Assembly (NCBI GenBank): GCA_039091335.1
Contig: JAWCME010000001.1
Location: forward strand, 1-64,000
DNA length: 64,000 nucleotides
Direction: 5' to 3'
From: Candidatus Aenigmatarchaeota archaeon
GTDB taxonomy: Archaea > Aenigmatarchaeota > Aenigmatarchaeia > CG10238-14 > SCSR01
Every line of letters starts with the position of its first letter. Within the stretch, counting starts at the first letter, position 1. The notes under the pieces were generated by a model. It saw only the letters and a program-made list of their open reading frames with translations. It searched no databases and was not told where the DNA came from. This document shows, piece by piece, positions 10,865 to 54,153 of the stretch. The translations under genes were made by a program, and so were the position numbers.

Positions 10865-10964
10865 TGCGCCGAGCGGGATTTGAACCCGCGTTGCAAGCTT
10901 GGAAGGCATACGCCAAAGTTCGCGTCTTAGACCTTCAGCCTTTCGTAGGCTGGACCATCGGCGC
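10865..10964 (-). tRNA. tRNA-Gly(UCC) with two non-canonical introns (D-loop, 10934..10946; 29/30, 10908..10919)
   Basis: Removing ACGAAAGGCTGAA and ACTTTGGCGTAT yields a 75-nt cloverleaf: acceptor GCGCCGA/TCGGCGC+A, anticodon stem CGAGC/GCTTG, loop CT-TCC-AA, T arm GCGGG-TTCAAAT-CCCGC. Confidence 0.92.
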
Positions 10965-11003
10965 ATTTATAGCTTTATAAATAATAAATAAAATCTTTTA
11001 AAT

Positions 11004-11144
11004 ATGTTTAAAGATGATGTGATTAAAAGAGCGATAAGAAGATTTAAAAAAATGTTTCCTTGTTCTGAGGGACTGGAAAAAGAGCTTATCCCTCTTGGTA
11101 GAGAGGAAGCAAAACCAAGGACATTAAAAAAAAGGAAAGGTTAA
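11004..11144 (+). CDS. Possible small basic protein (46 aa), not in ORF track
   Basis: ATG..TAA ORF MFKDDVIKRAIRRFKK...RKG filling the gap next to tRNA-Gly. Confidence 0.3.
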   Translation: MFKDDVIKRAIRRFKKMFPCSEGLEKELIPLGREEAKPRTLKKRKG

Positions 11145-11488
11145 CCTATATATTCTGGATGCTTTATTGGAACTTGTATAGGTCTACCCTTTGGCCTTCT
11201 TTTAAAATATTCCTTGTATGCCTCCCAAATTTTTCTTCCCTTTTCTCCATGAAGAATTTTTATTATCAACTGTCTTGGCCTGAAAGGTTGTTCTGATGTT
11301 GGGTTGTAGTCTATAAGCACAACATCTCCAGCTTTAATCTTGTCACTAATTCTTGGGTCTACTAAATATGTTATTATATTCTCGTCCCACGTTTCAACTA
11401 CAGCCTGAACAGAATTATCAGAGCTTTCAACTTCTTTTTCCTTTGGAAAAATTACTTCCAATACAATGCCTGGATGGTAGTACACCAT
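11141..11488 (-). CDS. Conserved-looking hypothetical protein (beta-rich, possible OB-like fold)
   Basis: HPGIVLEV...QAVVETWDEN...GDVVLIDY; follows the DUF355 gene. Confidence 0.65.
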   Translation of the reverse strand: MVYYHPGIVLEVIFPKEKEVESSDNSVQAVVETWDENIITYLVDPRISDKIKAGDVVLIDYNPTSEQPFRPRQLIIKILHGEKGRKIWEAYKEYFKRRPKGRPIQVPIKHPEYIG

Positions 11489-11492
11489 ATTC

Positions 11493-11984
11493 TCACAATT
11501 TATATCCAATCTTTCTTAAAAATTCTTTTCTTTCCTCAATCTCCTTTTCTTCCTCTATCCCCTTTGATTTAAACCCATCCACTACTCCAAGTATCGCCCT
11601 TCCTTGATCTGTTTCGCATATTATAACCTCTACAGGATTTGCTGTTGCACAAAATATTGAGCATACCTCTGGAACGTCCTTTAGTTTTGGTAAAATGTTT
11701 ATTGGATAAGCGTTTCTCATGAAAATTATGAAGCAGTGCCCTGCTGAAATTTTAAGTGCATTCTCTATAGCAATCTTCTTCAACTCCTCGTCGTTTCCAG
11801 AATGCCTTATCAAACATGGACCAGAAGCTTCGCAAAAAGCAAGCCCAAATTTAATGTTTGGAACAGAATTAACTAAAGCCTCGTGTATATCCTCTACACT
11901 CTTAATAAAATGGGATTGCCCAAGGATTAAATTGCAATTCTCTGGAACTTGTATTTTTATTATTTTTAACTCCATATTATTCAT
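11493..11984 (-). CDS. Adenosine-specific kinase / DUF355 family protein
   Basis: [36 protein letters not shown]. Confidence 0.92.
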
Positions 11985-12029
11985 TTTTTATTCAAAATTT
12001 AAATCTTGCTGAGGTTAAAAATAATAAAC

Positions 12030-13283
12030 ATGATTGGTTTAGTAGTAGTTTCTTCTAACATAGAAAAACAGAAAGAAGTAGGAGAAAAACTGAAAAAATT
12101 AGCAATCTCTACTTTTAATAAATTTTCAAACATAGAGTTTTTTGATTTGGTTTTTAATGAAGAAATGGCGAAAAATCTTGTAGGAAGAATTAAAAAGGAT
12201 GTTTGCGGATTAATAGTGCTTGTTGCGACTGGTGGGACTGAAAGAACAATAAGGGCTCTTGCTAAACTTAGAAAACCAATGCTTATCTTAGCAAATCCAT
12301 TTAATAATTCTCTTGCCTCATCTTTAGAAGCATATTCCAAAATTAAAGAAAAATACCGTGTAAAACTTTTCTATTCTGATTTTAATTCTGATTTTTTGCA
12401 TGAAATAAAATCTTTTTCTGAGGTGTGCGAAGTCATATCTAAACTTAAGGACTGTAAAATTGGGGTCATAGGCAAACCTTCAAAATGGCCTCTTTCTAAA
12501 AGAAACAAAAAACTCATAAGAAGGCTCGGACCAAGTTTAATACAACTAAAAATTCGAGATTTTTTAAAAGAGATTGAAAAAGTTAATGAAATAGAAGCAA
12601 ATAATTTGTTGAAGCGTTTACGCTTAGGAAAAATTAAAGTTTCTAAAAAAGAATTGATTAAAGCAATAAAAGTTTATTTGGCACTTAAAGGATTAGCGTC
12701 GAAATATAAACTTTCGGCTGTTTCTATCAAATGTTTTGATATTATGAATTACAACTATACTCCATGCCTGGGAGTGAGTTTGTGTAATGATGATAATTTA
12801 ATTGCAGGATGCGAGGCTGATCTACAAAGCATTTTAACTATGATAATTGTCTCTTTTGTTTCAAATCAACAATGTTGGATGGCAAATCCCTCGAGAATAT
12901 CTTTTGAAAAAAATACTATTTTGATAGCTCACTGCACGATTGCTACTAAAATGATTTCTGATAGCTCAAAAATAGAGTTGATTACTCACATGGAATCTGG
13001 AAGTGGTGTAGCTATAAGGGGGCCTTTAAAAAATAAGGAAATAACCCTTGTAAGACTTGGTGGAAACCTTGAGAAAATGTTGATAGCAACAGGAAAAATA
13101 GTTAAAAGCAATATGAAAGAAGAAAATGTTTGCAGAACTCAGGCCGAGGTTAAATTAAAAGGTAAAATTGAAAGATGGATTGAAAATTCTTTGGGTAACC
13201 ACCAAGTTTTGGTTTATGGTAACATCGAAAAAAAATTGATAGATTTTTGTAGATTTAAGAATATAGAAGCAATAGTAATTTAG
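12030..13283 (+). CDS. L-fucose/L-arabinose isomerase-like protein
   Basis: TGGTE, NSLASSLE, KCFD, GCEAD, AHCT, CRTQ, LGNH motifs. Confidence 0.82.
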   Translation: MIGLVVVSSNIEKQKEVGEKLKKLAISTFNKFSNIEFFDLVFNEEMAKNLVGRIKKDVCGLIVLVATGGTERTIRALAKLRKPMLILANPFNNSLASSLEAYSKIKEKYRVKLFYSDFNSDFLHEIKSFSEVCEVISKLKDCKIGVIGKPSKWPLSKRNKKLIRRLGPSLIQLKIRDFLKEIEKVNEIEANNLLKRLRLGKIKVSKKELIKAIKVYLALKGLASKYKLSAVSIKCFDIMNYNYTPCLGVSLCNDDNLIAGCEADLQSILTMIIVSFVSNQQCWMANPSRISFEKNTILIAHCTIATKMISDSSKIELITHMESGSGVAIRGPLKNKEITLVRLGGNLEKMLIATGKIVKSNMKEENVCRTQAEVKLKGKIERWIENSLGNHQVLVYGNIEKKLIDFCRFKNIEAIVI

Positions 13284-13981
13284 CTCTTTAATATTTTTAA
13301 CATAGTTTGAGCATTAGATAACATGTTTGTATTGTTATTAAAGAAGATATAAATTTTTTCCGGGCCAACCCTAAAGATTTTATCTTTTACTTCTTTCAAC
13401 TCCTTGTTAGTATAATTGTGAGAATACCATGCGTCCCTTCCATGCATTCTCAAATAAACAATTTTATTGGTAGAATAAACCTCTAAAGGAAAATCCGGTG
13501 AATCAACGCTAACCCAAGTTATTTTTAACTTAGATGCCCATTCTGTCCATTCTTCCTTAAACCAATCGAGGTTTCTTACTTCTAAAGCAAATTTTTCTTT
13601 TAGACCAGTTTTTTTAATGAATATTTCTAGTTTTGAAGAAAAACTTGATGTAATGGAAGGGGGTAATTGAAACAAGTAAAAATCAATGTTTTTTTCTAAC
13701 AATTTGAACAAGTCTTTAAACTTTTTCCAAAGCCCAAATGCCCTTTCGTTAAACTTAAATGTGTGCGTTATAAGCCTATTAACTTTAATACTCCATCTCA
13801 AAAATGGAAAAAAATTTTTTGTTTTTTTTAGCCAGGACTTTATTTGATTTGGAAAAGGGAAACGATAAAAACTTGCATTCAACTCAATTCCATTAAGTCT
13901 AGAATTCTTAAGATACCAATCAAAACTCAACTCTGGGTTCCAAGAGTAATACCACCCTGAGGTTCCTACAAATACTTCCAT
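13280..13981 (-). CDS. DUF72 family protein
   Basis: VGTSGWYY, ELNASFYR, LFQLPPS, YLRMHG, IFFNN. Confidence 0.92.
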   Translation of the reverse strand: MEVFVGTSGWYYSWNPELSFDWYLKNSRLNGIELNASFYRFPFPNQIKSWLKKTKNFFPFLRWSIKVNRLITHTFKFNERAFGLWKKFKDLFKLLEKNIDFYLFQLPPSITSSFSSKLEIFIKKTGLKEKFALEVRNLDWFKEEWTEWASKLKITWVSVDSPDFPLEVYSTNKIVYLRMHGRDAWYSHNYTNKELKEVKDKIFRVGPEKIYIFFNNNTNMLSNAQTMLKILKS

Positions 13982-14007
13982 CAATTTTAAATAATTTTTT
14001 ATTAAAC

Positions 14008-14559
14008 TTATAGACCAAGCTCTTCGTGAATCTTTTGTAAAGATTTGAGAGATATTTCAAAAAACTTCTCTTTTTGAATTCCTATATCCTCACAAAAAGT
14101 TATTCTTTCCCTGCTACATCTTCTTGCAAATGTTTTGTCCTTAAAACTTTTAATTATACTCTCTACCCTAACTTCTTCTAATTTTTTAGAAGGCATCACA
14201 AGAGCGGTTGCAATTATTAAACCTGAAACAGAGTCAGCAGCAATTAGCGCCTTTTCTATGTTTTTTTCTGGTTTTGTTCCGTTGTTTTCAAAGTTGTGTG
14301 CCTTTATCACTTTTATCAAATCTTCCCTAACCCTTTCTCTCAAAATTTCTTCAGCCAAAATCCCGTGTTTTTCTGGGCTATTTTCCGTTTTTTCAAAATC
14401 TATGTCGTGAAGAAGACCTACAATACCCCATTCTTCAATATTTTCGCCCAAAAAAGAGGCAACCCCCCTCATTATAGCCTCTACTGCAATGGAATGTTTT
14501 ATCAAATATTCTTTTTTAATATTTTGGTTCAAAAGTTCAAGTGCCTCTTCCCTTTTCAT
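14008..14559 (-). CDS. HDIG-domain phosphohydrolase
   Basis: KHSIAVE...GLLHDID...HG...AH...AADSVSG. Confidence 0.9.
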   Translation of the reverse strand: MKREEALELLNQNIKKEYLIKHSIAVEAIMRGVASFLGENIEEWGIVGLLHDIDFEKTENSPEKHGILAEEILRERVREDLIKVIKAHNFENNGTKPEKNIEKALIAADSVSGLIIATALVMPSKKLEEVRVESIIKSFKDKTFARRCSRERITFCEDIGIQKEKFFEISLKSLQKIHEELGL

Positions 14560-14568
14560 AATCTATCA

Positions 14569-15693
14569 CTAAAATTCTATGTTAGACCCAGAAATTATAC
14601 AAACTATTTTCCCTTCCAAATCTTTTTTCAATTTTAGTGCTCCACAAATACTTGCCACACCAGCAAGTTCTGCGATTATACCCTCTTTCCTTGCTAACAG
14701 CTCTCTTGTTTTTAAAAGTTCTTTATCTGTAACTACTTCTGCAATACCATTAGATTTATTTATCGCTTCCAATGCCTTTATACCATCTAACGGGTTGGGG
14801 CAGTCTATTGCAGAGGCAATTGTTCTTGATTTTTTTATTGGAGAAATATTATCCTCCCCCCTTTTCCAAGCATTTACTATAGGAGAACATCCAGAGGCCT
14901 GAATTCCAACCATTGCAGGCAAATTATCTATTAGGCCAACTTCCTTCATATCAAGAAATGCGTCCCATACGGAATAAATTAGTGTTCCGTTTCCCATTGG
15001 GCAAACCACATAATCTGGAGAAGAGAATTCAAATTGGTCTGCTATTTCAAAACCGACTGATTTCTGGCCCTCTCCTCTAAATGGATAATCTCCAACTATA
15101 TGTGCTCCAGTTTTTTTTGAGAATTTTTCGCATGCTTCTAATGCTTTTGTATAATCGCCATTTACTCTGAAAACCCTAGCACCAAGCATATTAATTTTTT
15201 TGATTTTTTGTGTAGAAACTTTTCTTGGCAAAAAAACATTAGCTTTCATTCCGGCCCTAGAAGAGTATGCTGCAATAGAAATACCCATGTTTCCTGTAGA
15301 GGCACAACAAACATCTTTGGCTTTAATCTCTACTGCTCTTGTTATTTCTACACTACTTCCCCTGTCTTTAAAACTACCGGTTGGGTTTGTTGTTTCAATT
15401 TTAAGAAACAGATTTTCAAAACCAAATTTTTCTGACCGCAATAGCTGGGTCCCACCCTCCCCAAGTGTAACTGCTTTTTTTGAATCTACCGGATAAAACA
15501 TCCAATACTTCCAATGTGTTGGTCTTTCTTTTATAAAACTCTCTTTAGATATGATTTTTTTTATTTCATCATAATCAAAAACTATATCTAAGCTTCCATA
15601 GCAAATTCTGCATCTATTAACTATCTCATTTAATTCATATTCCAAACCACATTCTTTGCAAACAATTTTTTTAGCTGTTATCAAACAATTCAA
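14569..15693 (-). CDS. thrC: Threonine synthase (PLP-dependent)
   Basis: TLGEGGT, NPTGSFKDRG, ASTGN, PMGNG. Confidence 0.88.
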   Translation of the reverse strand: MNCLITAKKIVCKECGLEYELNEIVNRCRICYGSLDIVFDYDEIKKIISKESFIKERPTHWKYWMFYPVDSKKAVTLGEGGTQLLRSEKFGFENLFLKIETTNPTGSFKDRGSSVEITRAVEIKAKDVCCASTGNMGISIAAYSSRAGMKANVFLPRKVSTQKIKKINMLGARVFRVNGDYTKALEACEKFSKKTGAHIVGDYPFRGEGQKSVGFEIADQFEFSSPDYVVCPMGNGTLIYSVWDAFLDMKEVGLIDNLPAMVGIQASGCSPIVNAWKRGEDNISPIKKSRTIASAIDCPNPLDGIKALEAINKSNGIAEVVTDKELLKTRELLARKEGIIAELAGVASICGALKLKKDLEGKIVCIISGSNIEF

Positions 15694-16190
15694 CCTATTT
15701 CCATGCTTCTTCTCATCCAGAATGCTTCTTCCTTCCCAATCTTCTTTTCTTCTATTTTTTTCTCTTCCTTCCCTTCTTCTTTTATCTCAATTCTAATGCT
15801 TTTAATTTTTTCTGCTATTCTCTTAAGTTCATCCTCAGTAATTTTAATTGGAGTAGACTCGATTAAAGGAACGTTTTCTTCATATACAGGATATATTCTG
15901 AAATGAAAGTGTGGTATTTCCTCTGAAGTTATTACTGAAATACTTATTGATTTTGGTTCTAGTGCCTGTTTTATCATTTCACTTACTATAAGTACAGACG
16001 AAAAGACTTTTTTTGATAACTCAAAGTTCTCGTCAAAAATTTTGTAATGGGTTTTTGGAATGACTATTGCCATTCCCCTTGAGCGAGGAAAAAGATCTAG
16101 AAATGCCGTTGAATTTTCGTCCTCATATATTATAAATGCGGGAATTTGTTTATTTGCTATTTTACAAAACACACAATCTTTTTGCTCCAT
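15690..16190 (-). CDS. HIT family nucleotide hydrolase
   Basis: DCVFCKI...IIYED...AFLD..P...PHFHFRI; real start is MEQKDC, the longer ORF overlaps rpl3. Confidence 0.85.
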   Translation of the reverse strand: MEQKDCVFCKIANKQIPAFIIYEDENSTAFLDLFPRSRGMAIVIPKTHYKIFDENFELSKKVFSSVLIVSEMIKQALEPKSISISVITSEEIPHFHFRIYPVYEENVPLIESTPIKITEDELKRIAEKIKSIRIEIKEEGKEEKKIEEKKIGKEEAFWMRRSMEIG

Positions 16191-16250
16191 ACTGTTAATT
16201 TTAAATGGATAGAATTTAAGTTTATTTAATTGAATTTGCAGGTGATGGGA

Positions 16251-17219
16251 ATGGTAAAGGAAGGAAATCCACGCAGAGGCTCTCTTCAGTTCTATCCAAG
16301 GAAGAGGGCAAAAAGAATTTATCCAGCCATAAAAACATATCCAAAAAGTGAAAAGGCAAGGATATTGGGTTTTGCTGGTTATAAGGCTGGAATGCTTCAT
16401 GCAATAATAATTGATAATAAAAAGAATTCTCCTACATTTGGACAAGAAATATCTGTACCAATAACTGTTTTGGATTGTCCTCCTCTTAAAGTTTTGGGTA
16501 TTAGGGTTTATGAATCTACAACAAAAGGATTTAGAGCACTAAGCGAAGCATGGACAAAAGAACTACCGAAAGATTTGAGCAGAAAATTAAAAATTAACCC
16601 AAAAGAATATAATCTGGAGAACATTGAAAAAATGATCGAAAAAATTTCTAAGGTTAGGATCATAGTAGCAACTCAGCCAAAATTGTCTGGAATTGGAAAG
16701 AAAAAACCAGAGGTTTTTGAAATAGAAGTTGGTGGAACAAATATCAAGGAAAAAATAGATTTTGCTAAATCATTGCTTGGAAAAGAGATTAGAATAGAAG
16801 ATTTTGTAAAAGATGGAGAACTTGTTGATGTCATCTCGATAACAAAGGGGAAAGGGTATGCTGGACCTGTTAAAAGGTTTGGAATAAAAATTCAGAATAG
16901 GAAGGCACATAAGAAAAGAAGACATGTTGGCACGCTCGGCCCAGAAACACCTTCTAGGGTAAGATGGACCGTACCTATGGCAGGCCAGATGGGATTTATG
17001 AGAAGAACTGAGATAAACAAAAGGGTATTGAAAGTTGGGAAAGGAGAAGAAATAACACCAAAGGGTGGATTTAAAAGATATGGAAAAGTGAAAACAAGCT
17101 ATTTGATAGTTGAAGGTTCTGTACCAGGAGAAAAAAAGAGGCTTGTCTTTATTAGAGCTCCAATAAGACCAGGAAAGATTAAATTTTTACCTACCGAGAT
17201 TAAAAAAATTGTTAGTTAG
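16251..17219 (+). CDS. rpl3: 50S ribosomal protein uL3
   Basis: PRRGSLQFYPRKRA, GYKAGM, TKGKG..GPVKRFG. Confidence 0.97.
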   Translation: MVKEGNPRRGSLQFYPRKRAKRIYPAIKTYPKSEKARILGFAGYKAGMLHAIIIDNKKNSPTFGQEISVPITVLDCPPLKVLGIRVYESTTKGFRALSEAWTKELPKDLSRKLKINPKEYNLENIEKMIEKISKVRIIVATQPKLSGIGKKKPEVFEIEVGGTNIKEKIDFAKSLLGKEIRIEDFVKDGELVDVISITKGKGYAGPVKRFGIKIQNRKAHKKRRHVGTLGPETPSRVRWTVPMAGQMGFMRRTEINKRVLKVGKGEEITPKGGFKRYGKVKTSYLIVEGSVPGEKKRLVFIRAPIRPGKIKFLPTEIKKIVS

Positions 17220-17263
17220 AAATATCTTAAATTTTTATTTATAAAACTTTAAGATATGGTAAT

Positions 17264-18079
17264 ATGAAGGTTAGTGTTCTTGGTTTAGACGGAAAGGCAA
17301 CAGAGGAAATTGAGTTGCCAAGTTTATTTAAAACACAGATTAGAGAAGATCTAATTCTCAGAGCGTTTCTTGCAACCCAAAGCAAAAAAAGACAACCTTA
17401 TGGAGTAGATGTTTTAGCAGGAAAAAGAACATCAGCGCACTATCATGGCATGAGAAGGGAGAGATTTACAATGATGGGAAGAGATATTGCAAGGATGCCA
17501 CGCATACATGGAAAAGGTGTTTCTCCAGCTTTAGCATGGAGGGCAAGATTCGTGCCTCAAGCTGTTAAAGGAAGGGCCGCACATCCGCCAAAAAAAGAAA
17601 AGATATGGGAACAGAAAATAAACAAAAAGGAAAGAAGAAAAGCAATTCAGTCAGCAATAGCAGCGACAGCATCCATAGATTATGTTAAAAAAAAACACAG
17701 GCTTGGAAAAGATATGAAACTGCCTATAGTTGTAGAGGATAAAATTCAAGAAATATCTAAAACAAAAAATCTTGTTGAATTTTTGAAAAACATTGGGCTT
17801 GAGGAAGAAATAAAAAGGGTTGAGAAGAGGAAACTAAGGGCGGGAAAAGGAAAGAGACGGGGAAGAAAATATAAAGAAGGGGTTGGACCACTAATAGTAG
17901 TAGCAGAAGATGAGGGGATAAGTAAGGCTGCAAAAAATTTAATTGGAGTAAATGTATGCAGAGTTGAAAATTTGAGCGTAGAACATCTTGCACCTGGAGG
18001 TGTCCCTGGGAGAATTTCAATATGGTCAAAAAGTGCAATAAATAAGCTTGAAAACTTTTTAAATTCTAAAAATATTTAA
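17264..18079 (+). CDS. rpl4: 50S ribosomal protein uL4
   Basis: PQAVKGRAAHPP, RAGKGKRRGRKY, HLAPGGVPGR. Confidence 0.96.
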   Translation: MKVSVLGLDGKATEEIELPSLFKTQIREDLILRAFLATQSKKRQPYGVDVLAGKRTSAHYHGMRRERFTMMGRDIARMPRIHGKGVSPALAWRARFVPQAVKGRAAHPPKKEKIWEQKINKKERRKAIQSAIAATASIDYVKKKHRLGKDMKLPIVVEDKIQEISKTKNLVEFLKNIGLEEEIKRVEKRKLRAGKGKRRGRKYKEGVGPLIVVAEDEGISKAAKNLIGVNVCRVENLSVEHLAPGGVPGRISIWSKSAINKLENFLNSKNI

Positions 18080-18097
18080 TTAATTCAAATTGATTAA

Positions 18098-18241
18098 ATG
18101 ATTGAATTTGAAAAATTTTCGAAATTTAGGACGAAGGAAGATTATACAACAAGAATAAATGTTTTTAATAAAAAAACTGAAAGTTTGAAAAAAACTTCTG
18201 AAGTCCTGAAGGAAATTTGCATTTTATTGAATAAAGAATAA
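18098..18241 (+). CDS. Possible small protein (47 aa), not in ORF track
   Basis: ATG..TAA ORF MIEFEKFSKFRTKED...LLNKE between rpl4 and rpl23. Confidence 0.25.
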   Translation: MIEFEKFSKFRTKEDYTTRINVFNKKTESLKKTSEVLKEICILLNKE

Positions 18242-18267
18242 ATTTATTATTTCATTTAATTTTGATT

Positions 18268-18528
18268 ATGGATCCATATAGTGTTTTGAAATATCCGCAT
18301 TTGACAGAAAAATCTGTTGCACTGCTTGAAAAGGAGAATAAAATAGTTTTTATAGTAGACAGGAAAGCAAACAAAAAAGAAATAAAGGAAGCCTTTGAAA
18401 AAATTTTTGAAGTTAAGGTAAAAGAAGTTAATACTTTAATAACTTCTACAGGAGAGAAGAAGGCATTCATAAAACTTGACCCGAAGTTCAAAGCAACAGA
18501 AGTAGCAACAAGACTTGGAATTGTTTAG
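18268..18528 (+). CDS. rpl23: 50S ribosomal protein uL23
   Basis: YPHLTEK...FIVDRKANKKEIK...VNTL...KKAFIKL. Confidence 0.96.
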   Translation: MDPYSVLKYPHLTEKSVALLEKENKIVFIVDRKANKKEIKEAFEKIFEVKVKEVNTLITSTGEKKAFIKLDPKFKATEVATRLGIV

Positions 18529-18580
18529 TTTATTAGCTTAGAAAAAAATTTAAATATTAAATTGGGTTTAAGTGAATAGC

Positions 18581-19683: not shown

Positions 19684-19735
19684 TTTTAAATTTTTCTATA
19701 TTGAAAATTTTAAAAAGAAATTAAGTGATGTTGGA

Positions 19736-20095
19736 ATGAAAAAAAGCATTTCGAAAATAAGGGACGCAAGAGTTTCACTTAAGAAATGTATTGTGATATG
19801 CAAAGAATTAAAAGGCAAAAAAATCAGTAAAGCAAAAGATTTTTTGGAAAAATTGATTAAAAAAGAAATAAGCTTAAACGGAAAATACTATACAAACCCA
19901 GCTAAAAAAATACTTGAGCTTTTAAAGAACGCTGAAGCCGATGCAAAGTTTAAGGGATTGGAATTAGAAAGAACTTTTATTAAAAATATAAAGGCCGATA
20001 AAGGGTTTACGTTCATAAGACCAAGATCAAGGTTTAGGTTAAGGGGGAGAAGAATAAAGGCAACCCATTTAACTGTTGAGTTAGAGGAAAGATAA
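19736..20095 (+). CDS. rpl22: 50S ribosomal protein uL22
   Basis: ARVSLKK...LLKNAEADA..KGL...THLTVEL; operon position. Confidence 0.92.
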   Translation: MKKSISKIRDARVSLKKCIVICKELKGKKISKAKDFLEKLIKKEISLNGKYYTNPAKKILELLKNAEADAKFKGLELERTFIKNIKADKGFTFIRPRSRFRLRGRRIKATHLTVELEER

Positions 20096-44440: not shown

Positions 44441-44444
44441 TATT

Positions 44445-44894: not shown

Positions 44895-44903
44895 TCTCTC
44901 ACC

Positions 44904-45425: not shown

Positions 45426-45458
45426 ATAATTAAGAAATTTTATATTAAATTTAAATTC

Positions 45459-45647: not shown

Positions 45648-45683
45648 TTTATTCAATTTATTTGCAAAATTTAAATTTTTTAT

Positions 45684-45965
45684 CTAAACTTTTTTTATTT
45701 CAAATTTTTTTGCTCTCCATCCCCTTCCTCTTGTATGTTTTTTTCCACACTTCAAACACTTAAATCTCAAATCAACTCTCTTTACTGCCTTCTCATAATC
45801 AGGCTTACTTTTTGGAAATGAAGTATAGCCCTTTAGTTTTCTCAAAAATCTTCTTTGTCCAACTGCTAAGCTTCTCCTCTGTCTTTTTTTTCCAATTTCA
45901 ACCTCATGTAACTGATGTGACTTGCAATACGGACAATAGACATTTATTTTTTTGGGAAATTTCAT
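45684..45965 (-). CDS. rpl44e: 50S ribosomal protein L44e
   Basis: MKFPK...YCPYCKSH...[11 protein letters not shown]. Confidence 0.95.
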
Positions 45966-46498
45966 CTACTCACCTTTAACTCCTCAACTATTCCTTTTTC
46001 AATCAAAACTTTAACATTTTCCTCCGGAAGTTTAACTATATCCCCCTTTTTAAATGGGCCATATGTTTTTTCATCTATTCCGATGAATTCCGGGAAGTCC
46101 TCTTTAAAGACGACTAACCCTATGGTTTCTTCTTCTAAAGATAGAATTGAAGTTAAACATTTATTTCTTCTCTCTTTTATTAAATTAACTAAACTTTCAA
46201 AGAATTTTCTCTCCTCTTCAGTCAAATTTTCTGGTGGAATGTTTGTTCTTGCTGCTATCAGGGCAGAATTTAATATTTTCCTTTCTCTTCTATTAAAAAT
46301 ATCTTCTACAAGCCTCTCAACACTTTTTATTTCTAACGCAATTTTTCTGTCTTCCATAGTTTCTGTTATCTTTTTTTTCTGCTGAATGTAAGAACTAACC
46401 CTTTTATAGAAATCTTCTGGTAGCTTTGTAAGTTTTGAAGAGCTTTGTTCTTCAATCTGAACCTTTCTTATGAACTCGAATGTTATGGTTTCTTCCAT
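45962..46498 (-). CDS. GINS subunit (Gins15/Gins51-like)
   Basis: [27 protein letters not shown]...[13 protein letters not shown]. Confidence 0.88.
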
Positions 46499-46538
46499 TT
46501 TCTCACTATATATAGGTAGTGAAGGTTTATTTAAGGAA

Positions 46539-47813
46539 TTATTTTTTCTTTTTTAACTTTTTGAATGGATAGTTAATTGGGTTTTTTATACCAACACATA
46601 TTTCGTCTGGATTGCAAACTCCAATGCTCTTATAAAACAAATCATTATCACAATTTGGTGGCAGTAAGTTTCTACTCTGCCTAAAATGCCATCTTAACTG
46701 TGTCCTTAGATAGTTTGCTCTTAACGGAGGATAGTTTTTTTCATTCCACTCAAAAATTTTCTTTTCCATTTTTTCCAAATCCCAGCCCATGTTCCTTAAG
46801 AAATTAATCAATACAAAAACGCTTCTTTTTCTTCCATCTTGAAGTCCCTTTAAAATCAAAGAAACACAAGGCGGAAAAAGATTTTCGGATATCTCTCTCA
46901 TCTTTATTGTTTTTTTCGGTTTTGTTATTTCTTCTTTCAATTCAACCTTTTGCTTTAAGGCCCAATCTAGAGCCTCTATTATTAAAGCCTCTGCATCGTG
47001 CAACTTAACCTTTTGTATCAAAAACTTCTCTTCGACCTTAACCTTTTCTGGTAATGCATCTTCTTTCTCAAACCTATCTATTCTTTCAGGTTTTATTGGA
47101 AGGCTAACGAGTAAAGTAGTTTCATGCAAAGAATACGGCAATCGAAATAGGTGTCTTGAACCAAAAACATCTATATTTACTATTTTAAATGGTTCTATTC
47201 CTTCCTCTCCAGCTATTTTGTTAAGCGGCTTCTTAATCCTTCTAGCTATATTTATAGGATTATCTAGCATGAGCATTTCTTCTTTAAGTGGCTCTTTGAT
47301 ATACCATTTTATATACTCTATAATTTTTTGTAGTAAATGCGGATAAAGTGTTTGAAATGGCTGCATGTTTATTTTTTCAGGGATTGATTCTGAACAAATT
47401 CCAATGTGAAAAGATTTCCCACCAGTAAACTTACATGAATAATTCACAACACCATGGTCCTTTAATCCTTCTATTATTTGTTTAGTAACTATTTTTGCAA
47501 TCTCAAAATCTGAAACATCGATGTCTATGAATATGTCCCAACCTATTCTTAAACTGTCCAGCTCTTCTTTTACCATGCCAACATCAAGTTTCATGGGCTG
47601 AGCCCATCTTTCAACACTTCCGTGAAATGCAACAACACCCTCAGAAACAGCCTGTAGTATGTCTTGTGAATACTGTATTATATCTGGGCGTCTTCCAAAC
47701 CTTCCGTCCTTGTAAACAGAGACAACCTCCCTATTTTTTCCCACCTCTAATAAAGCCTTTTGTACACTTTCTCTAGAATACCAATTCAAAATTTTTTTAT
47801 ATGTTTCCGACAT
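46539..47813 (-). CDS. Fused DNA primase (PriS catalytic domain + PriL Fe-S C-terminal domain)
   Basis: GWDIFIDID, KFTGGKSFH, RHLFRLPYSL, then FPPCV...DGRKR...PPNC...C.PDEIC...KNP. Confidence 0.88.
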   Translation of the reverse strand: MSETYKKILNWYSRESVQKALLEVGKNREVVSVYKDGRFGRRPDIIQYSQDILQAVSEGVVAFHGSVERWAQPMKLDVGMVKEELDSLRIGWDIFIDIDVSDFEIAKIVTKQIIEGLKDHGVVNYSCKFTGGKSFHIGICSESIPEKINMQPFQTLYPHLLQKIIEYIKWYIKEPLKEEMLMLDNPINIARRIKKPLNKIAGEEGIEPFKIVNIDVFGSRHLFRLPYSLHETTLLVSLPIKPERIDRFEKEDALPEKVKVEEKFLIQKVKLHDAEALIIEALDWALKQKVELKEEITKPKKTIKMREISENLFPPCVSLILKGLQDGRKRSVFVLINFLRNMGWDLEKMEKKIFEWNEKNYPPLRANYLRTQLRWHFRQSRNLLPPNCDNDLFYKSIGVCNPDEICVGIKNPINYPFKKLKKKK

Positions 47814-47909
47814 GTTATAACCACTTAAACATTTTATTGATTGTTTAAAAGATTTAATAAGTTATTACACTCAACTAACTTTAAAAATTAAAAAAATAAA
47901 ATTAATTTA

Positions 47910-48515
47910 ATGATGGATATTGTTAATTCTATTTCATCTTTTTTGATAGAAATTTTTCCAAAACTTTTGGCTGCAGTTGCTTTTCTTTTGCTTGGATGGT
48001 TGCTTGGGATTGTAATCGGAAGGGTTATAAAGGAATTAATGATAAAACTCAAAATAGACCAAAGGATATTTAGAGAAAAAAGAGTTGGATTCAAACCAAG
48101 TAATTTTTTCCCCACGCTTTTTAGTTGGACTGTTTACCTCCTTTTCATATGGGTGGCTGTTGATATACTTGGAATTCAAGTATTGAGAGAAGCTATGCAA
48201 ACAATAGTAATGGAATTTCTGCCTGGTATGATAAAAGCGGTTATTATAGTAGTAGTTGGTTATATAGTTGGTGAATATATAAAGAGACAGGTTGAGTTGA
48301 CAAAAGTGGAGTATTCAAAAATGCTTGGAAACATTGTTTTTTGGCTAATAATCTATATCTCGGTTGCAACAGCACTGCCATTGATAGGAATAAATCCAAC
48401 ACTTCTAAATAACATATTGTTGATAATAGGCATAGCGATAGCTATTGGGCTTGGACTGAAAGATGTTGTGAGAGAAATTTCAAAAAAATATATAGAGAAA
48501 AGTAAAAAAGGTTAA
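47910..48515 (+). CDS. Conserved TM-helix repeat membrane protein (CmpX/MscS TM-like)
   Basis: Two repeats PKLLAA..LLLGW / PGMIKA..VVGY; AIGLGLKD. Confidence 0.75.
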   Translation: MMDIVNSISSFLIEIFPKLLAAVAFLLLGWLLGIVIGRVIKELMIKLKIDQRIFREKRVGFKPSNFFPTLFSWTVYLLFIWVAVDILGIQVLREAMQTIVMEFLPGMIKAVIIVVVGYIVGEYIKRQVELTKVEYSKMLGNIVFWLIIYISVATALPLIGINPTLLNNILLIIGIAIAIGLGLKDVVREISKKYIEKSKKG

Positions 48516-49462
48516 AAATCTGTAATTTGTTTTTGCTCATTTTTTTGAAGAGCCGTTGCTTTAATTCCAAGTCTTCTTTCTATTTCCATTGCGAGCTCTT
48601 TTGCAAAGCCATGAACGCAACATACTCTTTCCGGCCCAACCTTTTCAACAAATTTTAAAAGTTGATTAAAGTCGCAATGGTCTGACATAGGAAACCCTTT
48701 AACACCAAAATCTCTTATAACACTCCATCCTGTAACTATGCATTTTCTAGTTCTACTTTTTTTTGTCAAAACTGCAACATGCATCGGAACAACAAAAAAA
48801 TCTGTTTTTTGCTCCTCAAAAAATTCTAGGTTTGAACCAAAACTATTGTAAATTTCGCAATATTTTCTTATACTACTTGAAACACTGGGAACAATTCCCT
48901 CCTTATTTAATAGTTTCACCACTTCTTGAGATTTTCCAACAGTATATCCCCCTATCATCACAGAAAGACCTGCATCATTCTGTTCCAAAACCCAATCAAT
49001 AATACTTTTTCTCACCTCTTTTATCGAAGGAAAAACAAAGGTTGGCAAGCCATAAGTTGATTCTAATATTAAGGTATCCGCTCTTTTAATTTCAATTTTC
49101 TTTCCTGTAAGACCCTTTGAAATCTTGAAATCTCCAGTATATAAAATTGAATTACTTTCCGTCTCTATAAGGGTTTGAGTCGATCCAAGGATATGCCCAG
49201 AGCTTATTAACCTTACAGAAAACCCATCAAACTCTATCTTTTCATTTTCCCTAACTATGTTTGCCTCAAATTCAGGGTTTCTTATTTTTATAAGTTCATA
49301 TGTTTCTTGAGTGCAGTATGGTTTTTTTATTATTACCTGGGGGGAATGGTCTGAATGAGCATGTGAAATAAAAGAAATAAAATCAGATATTTTTGGGTCC
49401 AAAAGTATTGTTTGATTTCCAATTTTTATTCCTATTCCATTTCCGAGAGAAAAAACAACCAT
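48512..49462 (-). CDS. MBL-fold beta-CASP nuclease (ligase-associated exonuclease-like)
   Basis: SHAHSDH, SGHILGS, YTGD, ESTYGLP.FVFP, GKSQE, TGW, SDHCDF, VHG. Confidence 0.88.
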   Translation of the reverse strand: MVVFSLGNGIGIKIGNQTILLDPKISDFISFISHAHSDHSPQVIIKKPYCTQETYELIKIRNPEFEANIVRENEKIEFDGFSVRLISSGHILGSTQTLIETESNSILYTGDFKISKGLTGKKIEIKRADTLILESTYGLPTFVFPSIKEVRKSIIDWVLEQNDAGLSVMIGGYTVGKSQEVVKLLNKEGIVPSVSSSIRKYCEIYNSFGSNLEFFEEQKTDFFVVPMHVAVLTKKSRTRKCIVTGWSVIRDFGVKGFPMSDHCDFNQLLKFVEKVGPERVCCVHGFAKELAMEIERRLGIKATALQKNEQKQITDF

Positions 49463-49471
49463 ATTAATTAT

Positions 49472-49720
49472 TTATTTTTTCATCTTCTTTATTTCTGACC
49501 TTAGACTTGGTACTTTAATCCATAGATTACAATTACTACACTTAAAACCGAATGGTTTTTTCCATGTTTCAAATTTTTTCTCTGAATAACTACACTCTGG
49601 GCAGGTGTATTCTACCATCGCCCTTGTTTCTCCCTTCAAAACAACAACTCTTACCCTTCCTTTGTTTTCACCAGAAGAGTTTTGTAGAATTCTTGTAGTA
49701 ATATATTGAATGTTAGACAT
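49472..49720 (-). CDS. Small Zn-finger hypothetical protein
   Basis: YTCPEC...FKCSNC; directly downstream of rpl40e. Confidence 0.7.
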   Translation of the reverse strand: MSNIQYITTRILQNSSGENKGRVRVVVLKGETRAMVEYTCPECSYSEKKFETWKKPFGFKCSNCNLWIKVPSLRSEIKKMKK

Positions 49721-49724
49721 TTCA

Positions 49725-49895
49725 TCACTTCGGTCTTCTTTTCGGTCTTAGGTCTGTTGATTTACACTTCCTGCATCTAACCTTTCCTTCTCTTACTTTT
49801 GCTGGGTCTGCTCTAATCTTGGCCTTGCATCTTCTACAAACAAAAACCCTGAAAAAAAGTCTTTGCATCGCCTCTGGCTGAAGCTTTTTTACCAT
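49725..49895 (-). CDS. rpl40e: 50S ribosomal protein L40e, not in ORF track
   Basis: MVKKLQPEAMQRLFFRVFVCRRCKAKIR...RCRKCKSTDLRPKRR. Confidence 0.88.
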   Translation of the reverse strand: MVKKLQPEAMQRLFFRVFVCRRCKAKIRADPAKVREGKVRCRKCKSTDLRPKRRPK

Positions 49896-49994
49896 AAAAT
49901 CACTTATCTATTTTTATTAAAATTAATTTTTTAATTTAAGAATTATGGATTAAGTTTAAATATTAATAAAAACAATTTTTCATCTTGATTTGAA

Positions 49995-50573
49995 ATGATA
50001 AAAAAGGAGATTAGAATACTGGGTTTTGATGACGGTGCCTTTGCTCCTAGGGATGATGCAAATGTCCCTCTTATTGGAGTTATATTTAGGGGTGGGGAAT
50101 TTTTAGATGGAGCACTTAAGACTGAAGTAAAAATAGATGGAAACGATGCTACTGAAAAAATAATAAATATTGTAAACTCTTCTCGCCACAAACAACAACT
50201 TAAAGTTATAATGTTTGATGGTGTTACTGTTGGAGGATTTAATGTGATCGACATAAAGGAGGTAAATGAGAAAACTGGGATACCAGTAATTGTAATTAAT
50301 AGAAAGTTGCCGGACATAAACAAAGTTAGGAATGCACTTAAAAATTTTGATGATTTTGAAAGGAGATGGAATTCTATTTTAAATGCAGGAAAAATAAAGG
50401 AATGTAGGATAAAAAACAAAAAAGTTTATTATCAATTAATTGGGTTAGACGACAAAGACGCAAAAGAAATAATTAGATTGAGTTCTACTAGAAGCTTTAT
50501 TCCAGAGCCATTAAGAATAGCTCATATAATTGCGACCGCAATAGCAAAAGGTGAAAGTTCGGGGAGGGCATAA
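49995..50573 (+). CDS. DUF99 family (endonuclease V-like) protein
   Basis: RILGFDD, DGNDAT, DGVTVGGFNVID, PEPLRIAH. Confidence 0.9.
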   Translation: MIKKEIRILGFDDGAFAPRDDANVPLIGVIFRGGEFLDGALKTEVKIDGNDATEKIINIVNSSRHKQQLKVIMFDGVTVGGFNVIDIKEVNEKTGIPVIVINRKLPDINKVRNALKNFDDFERRWNSILNAGKIKECRIKNKKVYYQLIGLDDKDAKEIIRLSSTRSFIPEPLRIAHIIATAIAKGESSGRA

Positions 50574-50575
50574 AA

Positions 50576-51103
50576 ATGAATGTGTATATTAAAAAATTGC
50601 TATCTAGCTTTGTTGGTTATGTGTTTTATGCTATGCTTGGATTACTTATAGCAATACTCATCAATCAGGTTTTATGCTTTGCATTAACCACAGAGTTTCC
50701 AGTGGTTGCGGTTCTAACTTCATCTATGCAGCATGACGAGCTTACCGAAGAAAATCATTATGGTTTTCTTGAAAAAAAGTTTGGATACAATAGAAGCTAT
50801 ATAAATTCTTGGCCCATAGCAAACGGTTTTTATATTGGAGATATGCCAATAGTAATGGGAAGTAAAGAATACTATGTTGGGGATGTTGTGGTCTATTCCA
50901 TACCAAACCAAAAAACTCCAATAATTCATAGAATAATCAAGATTAATGAAGATGGCACATTTATGTTAAAAGGAGATCATAATCCATCCCCACTTCCATT
51001 TGAATTGAACATAAAAAAGGAACAGATACATGGAAAAGTAATCTTTGTAGTTCCAAAATTGGGGTGGTTTAAGGTTTTGTTTTCATGGATAGTTGGTGGT
51101 TGA
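50576..51103 (+). CDS. Signal peptidase I (Sec11 type)
   Basis: VLTSSM, GD, PIIHR, KGDHN. Confidence 0.88.
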   Translation: MNVYIKKLLSSFVGYVFYAMLGLLIAILINQVLCFALTTEFPVVAVLTSSMQHDELTEENHYGFLEKKFGYNRSYINSWPIANGFYIGDMPIVMGSKEYYVGDVVVYSIPNQKTPIIHRIIKINEDGTFMLKGDHNPSPLPFELNIKKEQIHGKVIFVVPKLGWFKVLFSWIVGG

Positions 51104-51433
51104 TTGAAATTTTGTGAAAAATGTGGAAATTTGTTGATAATAGAAAATAGAAGAGGAACTGTTTTTCTTGTATGTAGAAAATGCGGTTGGAAGACAAAGC
51201 AGAAAAGTGAAAAAATAACTATAACTGAATTTTTAAAGGAGGGTGAAAAGAAGGTTGTAATTATGGGGAAGGACGAAGGCATAGCCGAATTACCAAAAAC
51301 TAAGATAATGTGTCCAAAATGTGAAAATATGGAAGCATATTGGTGGATGCAACAAACAAGGGCTGCTGACGAGCCCCCCACTTTATTTTATAAATGTACT
51401 CGCTGTGGCTATTCTTGGAGAAGTTATGGATAA
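51104..51433 (+). CDS. tfs: Transcription factor S
   Basis: FCEKCG...CPKC...QTRAADEPPT.FYKC. Confidence 0.95.
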   Translation: MKFCEKCGNLLIIENRRGTVFLVCRKCGWKTKQKSEKITITEFLKEGEKKVVIMGKDEGIAELPKTKIMCPKCENMEAYWWMQQTRAADEPPTLFYKCTRCGYSWRSYG

Positions 51434-51465
51434 ATTTTTAAACCCAGACGAAGAATTAATTCTTG

Positions 51466-51774
51466 ATGTTTAATAACTACAAACCAAAAAAAATTTGTGA
51501 AATAAGTCCAAACGACATAAAAGTATCGTTAATTGGAAGGATAGTTGAAGTTAGCGATAACGGTTTTGTTCTTGATGACGGAACTGGTAGAGCAGAAATA
51601 TTTTCTGAACTCAATTTGGAAGAAAATAGGTTTGTTAGGGTTTTTTGCTCGATTATTGAAAATAAGTTAAATGCAGATATTATTCAAAGATTGGAAGGAA
51701 ATTTAAATTTATTTAAGAAAGTAGAAGAATTATATAAAAGGTGGGAATCTAATGTTCAGGGCAACTTTGTCTGA
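51466..51774 (+). CDS. Small OB-fold protein (RPA small-subunit-like)
   Basis: KVSLIGRIV...FVLDDGTG...VRVF. Confidence 0.75.
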   Translation: MFNNYKPKKICEISPNDIKVSLIGRIVEVSDNGFVLDDGTGRAEIFSELNLEENRFVRVFCSIIENKLNADIIQRLEGNLNLFKKVEELYKRWESNVQGNFV

Positions 51775-52501
51775 TACAACTCTATTTACAGATTCTATAT
51801 CAACGATATCAGAACTTATAGATGAGGGTGTTTTTAAAATCTCAAAGGATGGAATAAGTTTTATTGCAGCGGACAGAGCAATGGTGGCTGTTGTTGATTT
51901 TAAATTTTTGGCAACAGCGTTTGAGGAGTTTGAGGTAGACCAAGAATATATGATTGGGCTAAACATTCCAAATCTTCTTTCTGTTCTGAGAAGAGCTGGG
52001 GCAGGAGATAAAATAAGCTTAAACTTGAAAGAAGGTAAACTAGAAATAATAATCGAAGGTAAATCAAAAAGAAGGTTTTTAATTCCTTTATTAGATATAA
52101 CACAGGAGGAAATACCACAAATAGATCAACTTGAGTTTTCCTCTAAAGCTGAAGTTTCTTCTGAAATTATAAAAAATGGGATAGAAGACGCTGAGATAGT
52201 GTCTGACTGCGTTTTAATTGAGGGGTCTCCTTCGAAATTTGGTATGAAGGCCGAGGGAGATATAAGCTCTTCGCAACTAGAACTGGAGAAAGGAAGTAAT
52301 GAATTAATTGAATTAAAATGCAGTACTGAAACAAAAGCAAGATATCCAATAGACTATTTGAAAAAAATGATAAAGGGTACAAAACTCGCTGATTCTGTTG
52401 TTATAGAGTGGGGAGAGGATTATCCTATGAAAATGACTTTTAAAGTAATAGACAAGCTTGTTTTATCTATTGTCCTAGCACCAAGGGTTATAGAGGAGTA
52501 A
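51752..52501 (+). CDS. pcn: DNA sliding clamp PCNA
   Basis: LIDEG.F, AADRAMVA, YPIDYL, DYPMKM, LAPRV. Confidence 0.96.
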   Translation: MFRATLSDTTLFTDSISTISELIDEGVFKISKDGISFIAADRAMVAVVDFKFLATAFEEFEVDQEYMIGLNIPNLLSVLRRAGAGDKISLNLKEGKLEIIIEGKSKRRFLIPLLDITQEEIPQIDQLEFSSKAEVSSEIIKNGIEDAEIVSDCVLIEGSPSKFGMKAEGDISSSQLELEKGSNELIELKCSTETKARYPIDYLKKMIKGTKLADSVVIEWGEDYPMKMTFKVIDKLVLSIVLAPRVIEE

Positions 52502-53276
52502 TTTTTTTAAACAAGCTTAAAATATTACTTAAAAAGGAAGTTCTAGACCCTATACCAGTAAGCTTAGACGCTATTTTCATAAAACTTATAGAAGCTTTTG
52601 AATAAGGTTTGTATAAAATTATTGGAATTCCTTGCGCTGCACTATCCATTAAATTTTCGTCAAAGGGAATTGTTCCAAGAACAGGAACTCCAAAAAAATC
52701 TTCTGCAACCTCTTTTCTAAGCTCAAATTTTTTATTTCTTACCATGTTTAAAATTATGTGAAATTTTTTTTGTCCGAGTTGTGACGCAAACTCAGCACAT
52801 CTTGTCATATCATAAACATTTGGTATTGTTGGAGTAGTAACAAAAATTATTTCCTCAGAGGCTTTTAAAACAGAAATTGCGTCTTTGCCCAACCCGGGGG
52901 CAGAATCAAGAAGAATGAAATCGTATTCTTCAATCTGAGATAGTCTTTCTATATATTTTTTCAACCCATTAATCTCAACCTTTATCACATCTTTTAACTC
53001 TTTTGAGCATGGAATAAACATTACTCCATTTTGATATATTGGAGCAAACCTTATGTCAACTTCATTTCTTAAAACGTCGTTTAATGTTATAGAATAGTTT
53101 TTAACTCCAAGATAGTATGCAAGATGGGGTGAAGTTATATTGCAGTCAATGATAATAACTTTTTTATTTAATTTTGACAGTGCTATGCCTAAGTTTGACG
53201 CCACCGTTGTTTTACCAACACCACCCTTTCCTGAAACAATCCCAATAATTCTTGTCAATTTCCCACTGTTTGTCAA
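52488..53276 (-). CDS. MinD/ParA family ATPase
   Basis: SGKGGVGKTT, DSAPG, IPFD. Confidence 0.9.
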   Translation of the reverse strand: MTNSGKLTRIIGIVSGKGGVGKTTVASNLGIALSKLNKKVIIIDCNITSPHLAYYLGVKNYSITLNDVLRNEVDIRFAPIYQNGVMFIPCSKELKDVIKVEINGLKKYIERLSQIEEYDFILLDSAPGLGKDAISVLKASEEIIFVTTPTIPNVYDMTRCAEFASQLGQKKFHIILNMVRNKKFELRKEVAEDFFGVPVLGTIPFDENLMDSAAQGIPIILYKPYSKASISFMKIASKLTGIGSRTSFLSNILSLFKKITPL

Positions 53277-53501
53277 TTAACTAACTATAGTTAAAATAGA
53301 TAAAAATTAAAATTTAAGTTTTATTTAATTCTTTTTTGAGCTAACTTATACCACTTCGTTTTTCAGACAAGAGAAACTACAGAATAATAACAGGACTCGT
53401 TGGTGATAACAGATCCTTTTAACTTGTTTTTAAAGGATGAAAGTATATATTCTGGATACTGAGTGTACAATAGCAGCTATTACCTACAGGTTCTTTTTCA
53501 C

Positions 53502-53903
53502 CTATTTATATCTTTGTTTTAGAATGAAAATATACTTCATAGGCATAAAGGCCTCTAAGTCGCTTTGATAGGAACATTTTGTGCACTTATATCCAATAAT
53601 TATATCCTTCTTCATCAAATTCTTAACCTTTATCTCTTCTATGGAAGAATCACAAATTGGGCATTTTTCTATTTTTTGTAACTTTATTGTTTTTTTTGTT
53701 TTTGCCTTAACTTCAACTTCCGGTAAAAGTAAAGCGATTCTCTTTACCCTAATTGGAGAAAGTATGTATTCCTTGTTTTCTTTCTTAAGCCTTCTTAAAA
53801 CGAGATTACACAGCTCTTCCTGCGTATCAACTCTTATTCTACTTCTAATAACGTTTTTTATTTCTTCAGCAACCCTACTAGCTGGCGGAATTTTACTTTC
53901 CAT
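53502..53903 (-). CDS. Hypothetical protein with C-terminal Zn ribbon
   Basis: CPIC...YKCTKCSY...PMKYIF. Confidence 0.72.
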   Translation of the reverse strand: MESKIPPASRVAEEIKNVIRSRIRVDTQEELCNLVLRRLKKENKEYILSPIRVKRIALLLPEVEVKAKTKKTIKLQKIEKCPICDSSIEEIKVKNLMKKDIIIGYKCTKCSYQSDLEAFMPMKYIFILKQRYK

Positions 53904-54041
53904 CTCAATAAGAATTTATAAAAGTAGGATTTAAGTTTAACATAACAGTTATATTTTACAATTACATATACTTTAAAAAATGAAGAAAGGATGTTAATAG
54001 AAATTAAATTTTATAACTTTCAAAATAATACTATCTTACAT

Positions 54042-54153
54042 GCCGAGGTGGCAGAATCAGGTAATGCGCAGCCCTGGAGTTTTTAGAAAGGCTGTGTCCC
54101 TCTGGGACGTCTGGGTTCAAATCCCAGCCTATGGTAATACCAGCTGAACGGCG
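54042..54153 (+). tRNA. tRNA-Ser(GGA) with 9-nt intron at 37/38 (54080..54088) and 18-nt BHB intron at 68/69 (54131..54148)
   Basis: GCCGAGG pairs with CCT[ATGGTAATACCAGCTGAA]CGGC+G; anticodon stem CAGCC/GGCTG; CT-GGA-G[TTTTTAGAA]A; variable arm GTCCC-TCT-GGGAC; TTTTATAA box at 54009-54016. Confidence 0.92.

Follow-up and report, generated by a model that had tools for sequence, protein, structure and literature searches.

Two transfer RNA (tRNA) genes in a 64,000-nucleotide (nt) stretch of archaeal DNA carry very small introns with identical borders at structurally unrelated positions, one in the D-loop of tRNA-Gly(TCC) and the other between positions 68 and 69 of tRNA-Ser(GGA). The original prediction took this likeness as the footprint of an intron that moved, and the question raised by the locus is whether movement is needed to account for it. 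The stretch, hereafter the window, is C1:1-64000 of the assembly G000, a metagenome-assembled genome from a hot-spring DPANN archaeon of the Aenigmatarchaeota (0.57 Mb; 569,737 bp in 29 contigs, ~33% G+C, 87% complete). The L2 ribosomal protein that it encodes is most similar to those of hot-spring metagenome-assembled genomes labelled Candidatus Aenigmatarchaeota. The reading that we favour, with a probability of roughly 0.6, is that the Gly/Ser border identity is chiefly convergence, arising from a bulge preference, forced pairing and pre-existing exon segments, and that real sharing of intron sequence is found separately, in a family of Ser and Lys introns.

Direct reading of both strands confirms the predicted identity. 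In each gene the exon segment CCAGCCT precedes an intron that begins with A and ends in GCTGAA, and the letter after the insert is G in tRNA-Gly and C in tRNA-Ser. Across the 56 tRNA introns catalogued in the whole assembly, all 14 border letters (seven exon, the first intron and the last six intron letters) are common to two of the 1540 intron pairs, namely this one and two tRNA-Glu paralogues interrupted at the same position. The Gly/Ser pair is thus the only one among 1538 non-paralogous pairs with all 14 letters in common, and at the level of exon plus intron borders its identity is real and unusual. By intron sequence alone, nothing sets the pair apart: the two introns agree in one leading and six trailing letters, a total of seven that 12 of the 1540 pairs equal and 11 exceed. 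The two interiors are unrelated on comparison, in line with the predicted confinement of the differences to the inner hairpin, and the high identity over the intron by which a transposed intron is recognised is absent between them.

The boundaries of both introns are fixed independently of any splicing motif, because the spliced D-arm of tRNA-Gly and the spliced T-stem and acceptor of tRNA-Ser are letter for letter the uninterrupted sequences of intron-less orthologues in relatives. Archaeal introns of the bulge-helix-bulge (BHB) type are cut by EndA and their exons joined by RtcB; their motif is a 4-bp central helix between two 3-nt bulges, with each cut falling behind the second letter of a bulge. 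The local minimum-energy fold around the Ser 68/69 intron is exactly the helix-bulge-helix expected of this motif. The Gly D-loop intron includes a perfect reverse complement of exon CAGCCT, and the region folds locally into a hairpin of 6 bp (CAGCCU/AGGCUG) in which the 5′ cut falls in a 5-nt loop and not in a 3-nt bulge. Its helix and 3′ side fit the BHB motif, and its 5′ side is of the loop type, resembling the relaxed bulge-helix-loop form.

How many of the shared letters call for an explanation can be judged from the complete intron set. An Rfam tRNA search of the whole assembly gave 37 matches, each of which was resolved to a tRNA gene, and introns were catalogued by brute-force removal of candidates, ARAGORN scoring of the products and hand curation. 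The curated catalogue holds 56 mini-introns in 32 of the 37 genes (86% disrupted), with five genes lacking an intron; the spliced forms of all 32 interrupted genes pass ARAGORN with scores of 113-127. A filter demanding four of four helix pairs by itself overlooked 12 introns with three of four. When alternative boundaries led to an identical mature tRNA, the choice fell on the best central-helix pairing (the fit to A...AA was noted for several), and five uncertain boundaries were flagged. The introns are between 9 and 82 nt long, and their median length is 14 nt. Only 17 of the 56 introns occupy position 37/38; the other 39 lie in the D-loop just before G18, at 26-31, 33/34 and 40-46, in the T-loop at 59/60, and at 68/69.

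These introns are built to one plan: an opening letter, in most cases A, is followed by a small hairpin or loop, then by a tetramer that complements exon positions -6 to -3, and finally by two letters that are mostly AA. The central helix forms between exon letters -6 to -3 and intron letters -6 to -3, with four of four pairs in 39 introns, three of four in 12, and fewer in the five uncertain ones. The first letter is A in 39 of the 56, the last two are AA in 40, and both hold in 31. A...AA is a preference of the splice bulges and a genome-wide rule in the tRNA introns of G000. Seven of the 14 border letters are consequently constrained, because GCTG is forced by exon CAGC and because A and AA are the consensus. 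The prediction had itself cautioned that pairing with CAGC dictates GCTG and that the identity might be convergence in part; this caution is upheld, and the A...AA bulge consensus adds to it. The shared borders would then combine a lineage-wide bulge preference with four letters imposed by the exon, and the exon heptamer is all that is left unexplained.

Six copies of the heptamer CCAGCCT are present among the 37 mature tRNAs, in three structural contexts: the anticodon stems of tRNA-Pro(CGG), tRNA-Ser(TGA) and tRNA-Ser(CGA), the D-loops of tRNA-Gly(TCC) and tRNA-Gly(CCC), and the T-stem/acceptor region of tRNA-Ser(GGA). Four of the six sites lack an intron at that register. Because the segment is uninterrupted in eight Ser genes and six Gly genes of relatives, the exon heptamer is older than both introns. 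Presumably, two conserved segments that already existed, the tRNA-Gly D-loop and the tRNA-Ser T-stem/acceptor, merely happen to read CCAGCCT.

The age of the Gly intron also bears on the question. Among 14 tRNA-Gly(TCC) genes of relatives, the same D-loop site is occupied in three (G013, G015 and G016) by introns that start with AC and end in GGCTGAA and whose loops differ; the G015 intron differs from that of G000 in one of 13 letters. The site is uninterrupted in 10 of the 14, and in G032 an insert is located at another place of the D-loop. An alignment of 15 ribosomal proteins (2349 columns) gave a maximum-likelihood tree that separates (G009,G011) from a fully supported clade of G015, (G013,G016) and (G000,(G118,G119)), the last grouping having support of 98/99. 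This tree replaces single-protein identities (L2 and an 883-aa protein), which were in conflict over the nearest relative of G000. Given its topology, one gain at the base of the clade and one loss in the G118/G119 branch suffice for the Gly intron. On this comparison the D-loop intron is judged to be old and vertically inherited across four genera (G000, G013, G015 and G016), not recent, and most likely its ends are kept by selection while its loop drifts. The second intron of the same gene, at 29/30, is absent from the G013, G015 and G016 orthologues. As a separate observation, the first seven letters of this 29/30 intron, ACTTTGG, also open the 37/38 intron of tRNA-Ala(CGC) (C23:26423-26432), which constitutes a second, weaker likeness across positions.

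The Ser 68/69 intron has a very different distribution. Among 21 Ser genes in 17 relatives it is found in one, the tRNA-Ser(TGA) gene of G013, which has a homologous 31-nt intron at the same site. When the T-arm and intron of G013 were used in a BLAST search of 118 genomes of the order, the intron was reached only in G000 and G013. Because these two genomes are not sisters on the tree, the pattern calls for two arrivals or else for several losses. Two DNA runs yielded contigs that span the Ser gene; these contain the intron without any difference and include no intron-less variant, but contigs drop rare variants. An exact 16-letter scan of metagenome contigs for the T-arm and intron start was uninformative, as none of 80 loci among the matches listed lay in the T-arm context.

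A clearer case of shared intron sequence involves the same Ser intron and an 82-nt intron at 30/31 of a tRNA-Lys(TTT) gene on another contig. The first five and last ten letters of the Lys intron are those of the 18-nt Ser intron and thus account for 15 of its 18 letters. With these 15 end letters in common, the two introns rank joint first among the 1540 pairs, level with the Glu paralogues; the next best total is ten. The G013 intron strengthens the connection, since 13 of its 15 leading letters are those at the start of the G000 Lys intron. The 14-mer ATGGTRAGAGAAAA occurs 11 times in the 118 genomes, compared with nine occurrences of a reversed control; nine of the 11 are inside coding sequence, and the only other two are the starts of the G013 Ser and G000 Lys introns, each directly after CAGCNN. 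At the opposite end, CAGCTGAA closes the Ser 68/69 introns of G000 and G013 as well as the Lys 30/31 intron (18, 31 and 82 nt, respectively). The family signature is 5′ ATGGTRA... and 3′ ...CAGCTGAA, with all three members located behind exon CAGC. Other CAGC-paired introns (Arg 30/31, a second Lys 30/31 and four Gly introns) have different letters before GCTGAA. In this place all four Gly introns have G and all three Ser/Lys introns have CA.

The middle of the 82-nt Lys intron has no match, in that BLAST against 70 genomes of the family returned only A-rich chance matches inside other sequence. This long form at 30/31 is found only in G000; its G118 orthologue is a 74-nt intron-less gene, and in G013 and G122 the tRNA-Lys(CTT) genes are interrupted at 30/31 by short introns that end in GTTGAA. 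The shared ends argue that intron sequence has been copied or exchanged in G000 between unrelated sites that offer CAGC. The likely course is that an intron already present at 30/31 in the lineage of G000 acquired Ser-type sequence by copying or exchange and that the Ser copy was shortened afterwards, although both the direction and the mechanism of such a transfer are inferred. The family appears to be a small but clean case of intron sequence common to unrelated sites, and the sign of intron mobility is better supported for the Ser/Lys pair than for the Gly/Ser pair. The long members of the family (G000 C8:2324-2405 and G013 L010) both open with ATG and read M-V-R-E-N before they diverge (17 and 9 codons), an opening that is probably meaningless.

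Several results weigh against convergence as the account of the Gly and Ser borders. In a simulation of 20,000 trials, in which the positions of 56 introns were drawn at random along the mature tRNAs, at least one non-homologous pair shared an exon heptamer with P=0.068, and shared the three bulge letters as well with P=0.024. The coincidence is thus nominally unlikely without being extreme, and it was noticed after the fact; nevertheless, pure coincidence is not a comfortable explanation. Exon CAGC serves as helix partner at five of 22 available sites against a background of 2.2% (naive binomial 1e-4), although a single position, 30/31, supplies three of the five, in two Lys tRNAs and one Arg tRNA. 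The choice of boundaries by helix pairing slightly inflates the A...AA consensus counts on which part of the argument depends. Finally, the occurrence of a GCTGAA-ended intron at two different CAGC sites in the Ser/Lys family keeps a target rule alive.

These same observations are what an alternative built on mobility would draw upon. A single mobile mini-intron with the 3′ end GCTGAA might have inserted wherever CAGC lay two letters upstream of the cut, so that the Gly, Ser and Lys/Arg introns would all be its descendants with replaced interiors. The 14 identical letters at unrelated positions, the occupancy of CAGC sites, the family signature common to Ser and Lys introns behind CAGC, and the patchy occurrence of the Ser 68/69 intron despite the same uninterrupted heptamer in eight of the relatives' Ser genes are all in its favour. 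We nonetheless consider it unlikely. The Gly and Ser interiors show no likeness, the letters before GCTGAA are family-specific, and the Gly intron predates the genus, in agreement with vertical descent. Moreover, 17 of the 22 CAGC sites are empty at that register, as are the four CCAGCCT sites mentioned above, and the 30/31 introns of other tRNAs pair with CAAC, CGGC and CGCC, which points to a positional hot spot and not to a sequence target. In its more specific form, the idea would have a GCTGAA-ended family spread to any tRNA site with CAGC two letters before the cut, through reversal of splicing by EndA and RtcB or through DNA microhomology, and leave the Gly, Ser and Lys/Arg introns as descendants; we hold this target rule to be slightly more doubtful still.

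At the opposite extreme, every intron would have originated separately at its own site, for instance through a small inverted duplication of adjacent exon, and all likeness, including that of the Ser/Lys family, would be convergence; this reading strikes us as no more probable than the single mobile intron. It would account for the reverse complement of exon CAGCCT within the Gly intron, and hence for the plain 6-bp hairpin, and for the match of the intron 3′ tetramer to its own exon (51 of the 56 introns have at least three of four pairs). A 2026 bioRxiv preprint on the tRNA introns of Asgard archaea likewise reports that copying from one tRNA type to another is scarce and identifies no general way in which introns arrive. 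However, convergence leaves unexplained the 13 of 15 leading letters common to G013 Ser and G000 Lys, whose 14-mer is otherwise found only in coding sequence.

Between these extremes, the convergence of the Gly/Ser borders together with a separate Ser/Lys family remains our preferred reading, and the Gly D-loop and Ser 68/69 introns are most likely not copies of one another. The claims of the original prediction divide along the same line. Shared borders as a footprint of mobility are mostly not needed for the Gly/Ser pair, given the constraints and the old Gly intron, whereas the idea finds support in the Ser/Lys pair. Its proposal that introns spread to sites complementing their 3′ tetramer is favoured by the Ser/Lys introns at two CAGC sites and by the CAGC excess, and is opposed by the many empty CAGC sites and the 30/31 hot spot. 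On the recurrence of the borders beyond what the BHB motif imposes, which it had suggested examining, the 56 introns show the nominally unlikely heptamer coincidence and the CAGC excess; the remaining letters are constrained, and one hot spot supplies three of the five CAGC introns.

We infer from sequence both the splicing itself and the enzyme responsible for it; the G000 inserts would be protein-spliced mini-introns of the BHB type. No match to PF01974, the EndA domain, was found in the 87%-complete assembly even at E≤10, and G011, G013, G015 and G016 have one EndA gene each, encoding about 190-230 amino acids (aa). The EndA of G000 is either located in the missing 13% of the genome or very divergent. 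The single EndA of this size in relatives differs from enzymes of the (alpha-beta)2 or epsilon2 type.

In several respects the set resembles known systems. As in the BHB introns of Thermoproteales and of Micrarchaeota/ARMAN-2, exon and intron form a 4-bp central helix and the cuts fall two letters after each strand. The D-loop, 30/31, 45/46, 59/60 and acceptor positions have precedents among known BHB introns, as do relaxed forms without one bulge. BHB introns that are multiple or non-canonical, and the way in which they co-vary with the type of EndA, are well described (PMC3239211, PMC5829648), the bulge-helix-loop is a known relaxed form of the motif (PMC5829648), and Kaneta et al. (2018) report that DPANN lineages with many disrupted tRNA genes have enzymes of the alpha4 type that carry an extra loop (PMC5829648). 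The proportion of disrupted genes in G000 (86%, or 32 of 37) is similar to the 'up to 87%' given in PMC3239211 for archaea with broad-specificity enzymes. By contrast with known BHB systems, the introns of G000 are very small, and up to four are present in one gene.

That introns transpose from one tRNA type to another was proposed by Fujishima et al. (2010) for Thermoproteales, as related in a review (PMC4090602) and in the 2026 bioRxiv preprint; the preprint uses Thermoproteales as a positive control and reports hardly any copying of this kind in Asgard archaea. The counterpart in G000 is the pair of Ser 68/69 and Lys 30/31 introns, which have both ends in common behind the same exon tetramer. 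The difference is that whole introns in Thermoproteales are reported to be at least 70-80% identical across tRNA types, whereas in G000 only the ends agree (five plus ten letters, and 13 of 15 across genera). The Gly/Ser pair would fall below that identity. A full-text literature search for tRNA introns in Aenigmarchaeota gave nothing on the topic among the matches listed, as far as titles and abstract openings indicate. From its shared ends, the Ser/Lys case would be a new example of the tRNA intron transposition known from Thermoproteales.

How archaeal tRNA introns reach new sites is the wider issue. The Thermoproteales data demonstrate movement and not its manner, and the 2026 Asgard census reports no general route. 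G000 offers a compact and almost saturated set (56 introns for 37 genes) whose grammar is very simple and in which one family at two unrelated sites shares the exon tetramer that pairs with its 3′ end. This makes the choice of target through the central helix testable. If true, the CAGC target rule, in which the central helix of the splice motif also selects the target, would give archaeal intron transposition its first insertion rule at the level of sequence. The Gly/Ser pair also carries a warning that identical intron borders by themselves are poor evidence, since they are produced by conserved exons and by what the enzyme requires.

The original prediction had extended intron spread to messenger RNA (mRNA). 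The window yielded no mRNA intron. A genome-wide search for A...AA candidates whose removal fuses two open frames gave 2056 candidates, which are mostly ordinary gene junctions. A CAGC...GCTGAA match at 19899-19936 was rejected as an mRNA intron because it lies inside an intact open frame, which the operon context suggests is probably that of ribosomal protein L22. The classic intron-bearing mRNA is that of cbf5, and in G000 this gene is one uninterrupted 314-aa frame at about 1245-1586.

The features discussed are collected in the table. At default settings ARAGORN reports no tRNA in the window, and Rfam at its gathering score detects two of the three window tRNA genes; default tRNA finders overlook most of these interrupted genes.

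Table. Interrupted tRNA genes and their introns in the window, with the Lys gene of the Ser/Lys family.
Feature	Position	Strand	Remarks
tRNA-Gly(TCC) gene, two mini-introns	10865..10964	-	Rfam tRNA model 25.3 bits unspliced; ARAGORN Gly(tcc) 124.1 spliced
Gly D-loop intron, 13 nt, between 17a and G18	10934..10946	-	Exon CAGC pairs with intron GCTG; A first, AA last
Gly 29/30 intron, 12 nt	10908..10919	-	Central helix ACGC/GCGT, 4/4 Watson-Crick pairs
tRNA-Ser(GGA) gene, two mini-introns	54042..54153	+	Rfam tRNA 33 bits; ARAGORN Ser(gga) 119.3 spliced
Ser(GGA) 37/38 intron, 9 nt, canonical position	54080..54088	+	Two Watson-Crick and two G-U pairs with anticodon-loop positions 32-35
Ser(GGA) 68/69 intron, 18 nt, acceptor stem	54131..54148	+	Central helix CAGC/GCUG, 3-nt bulge CUA, inner helix UGGU/ACCA
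tRNA-Ser(TGA) gene (context)	86..185	-	CCAGCCT in anticodon stem, no intron at that register
Ser(TGA) 37/38 intron, 14 nt, the only one in the gene	133-146	-	From the curated catalogue
tRNA-Lys(TTT) gene	contig C8, 2293-2481		82-nt intron at 30/31 (C8:2324-2405), behind exon CAGC

Several further features of the tRNA genes were observed. One tRNA-Lys(TTT) gene on contig C23 (about 6350-6495, minus strand) contains four introns. A gene at C24:34931-35059 with three introns encodes a tRNA with the anticodon TAT (Ile, UAU), an unusual archaeal way of reading AUA. The heptamer TTCAAGA is common to the 37/38 introns of tRNA-Thr(CGT) (C27:2696-2705), tRNA-Pro(CGG) (C28:2696-2707) and tRNA-Arg(CCT) (C12:776-786), where either shared descent or a constraint tied to C34 is possible. 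In the precursors of tRNA-Met(CAT), tRNA-Leu(CAA) and both tRNA-Glu(TTC) (C1:95264-95388, C27:403-515, C23:24121-24257 and C18:588-705), the anticodon loop can form 6-8 bp with the 5′ part of a long 37/38 or 38/39 intron, and this pairing is off the register of the standard motif. The tRNA-Gln(TTG) gene carries a 26-nt intron at 10/11, and its 5′ acceptor heptamer is repeated 11 nt upstream of the gene (C27:12655-12672). Outside G000, the tRNA-Ser(TGA) genes L318 of G119 and L322 of G118 have a 37/38 intron of roughly 60 nt with ATGATGA and CTGA motifs that recall those of a box C/D guide RNA.

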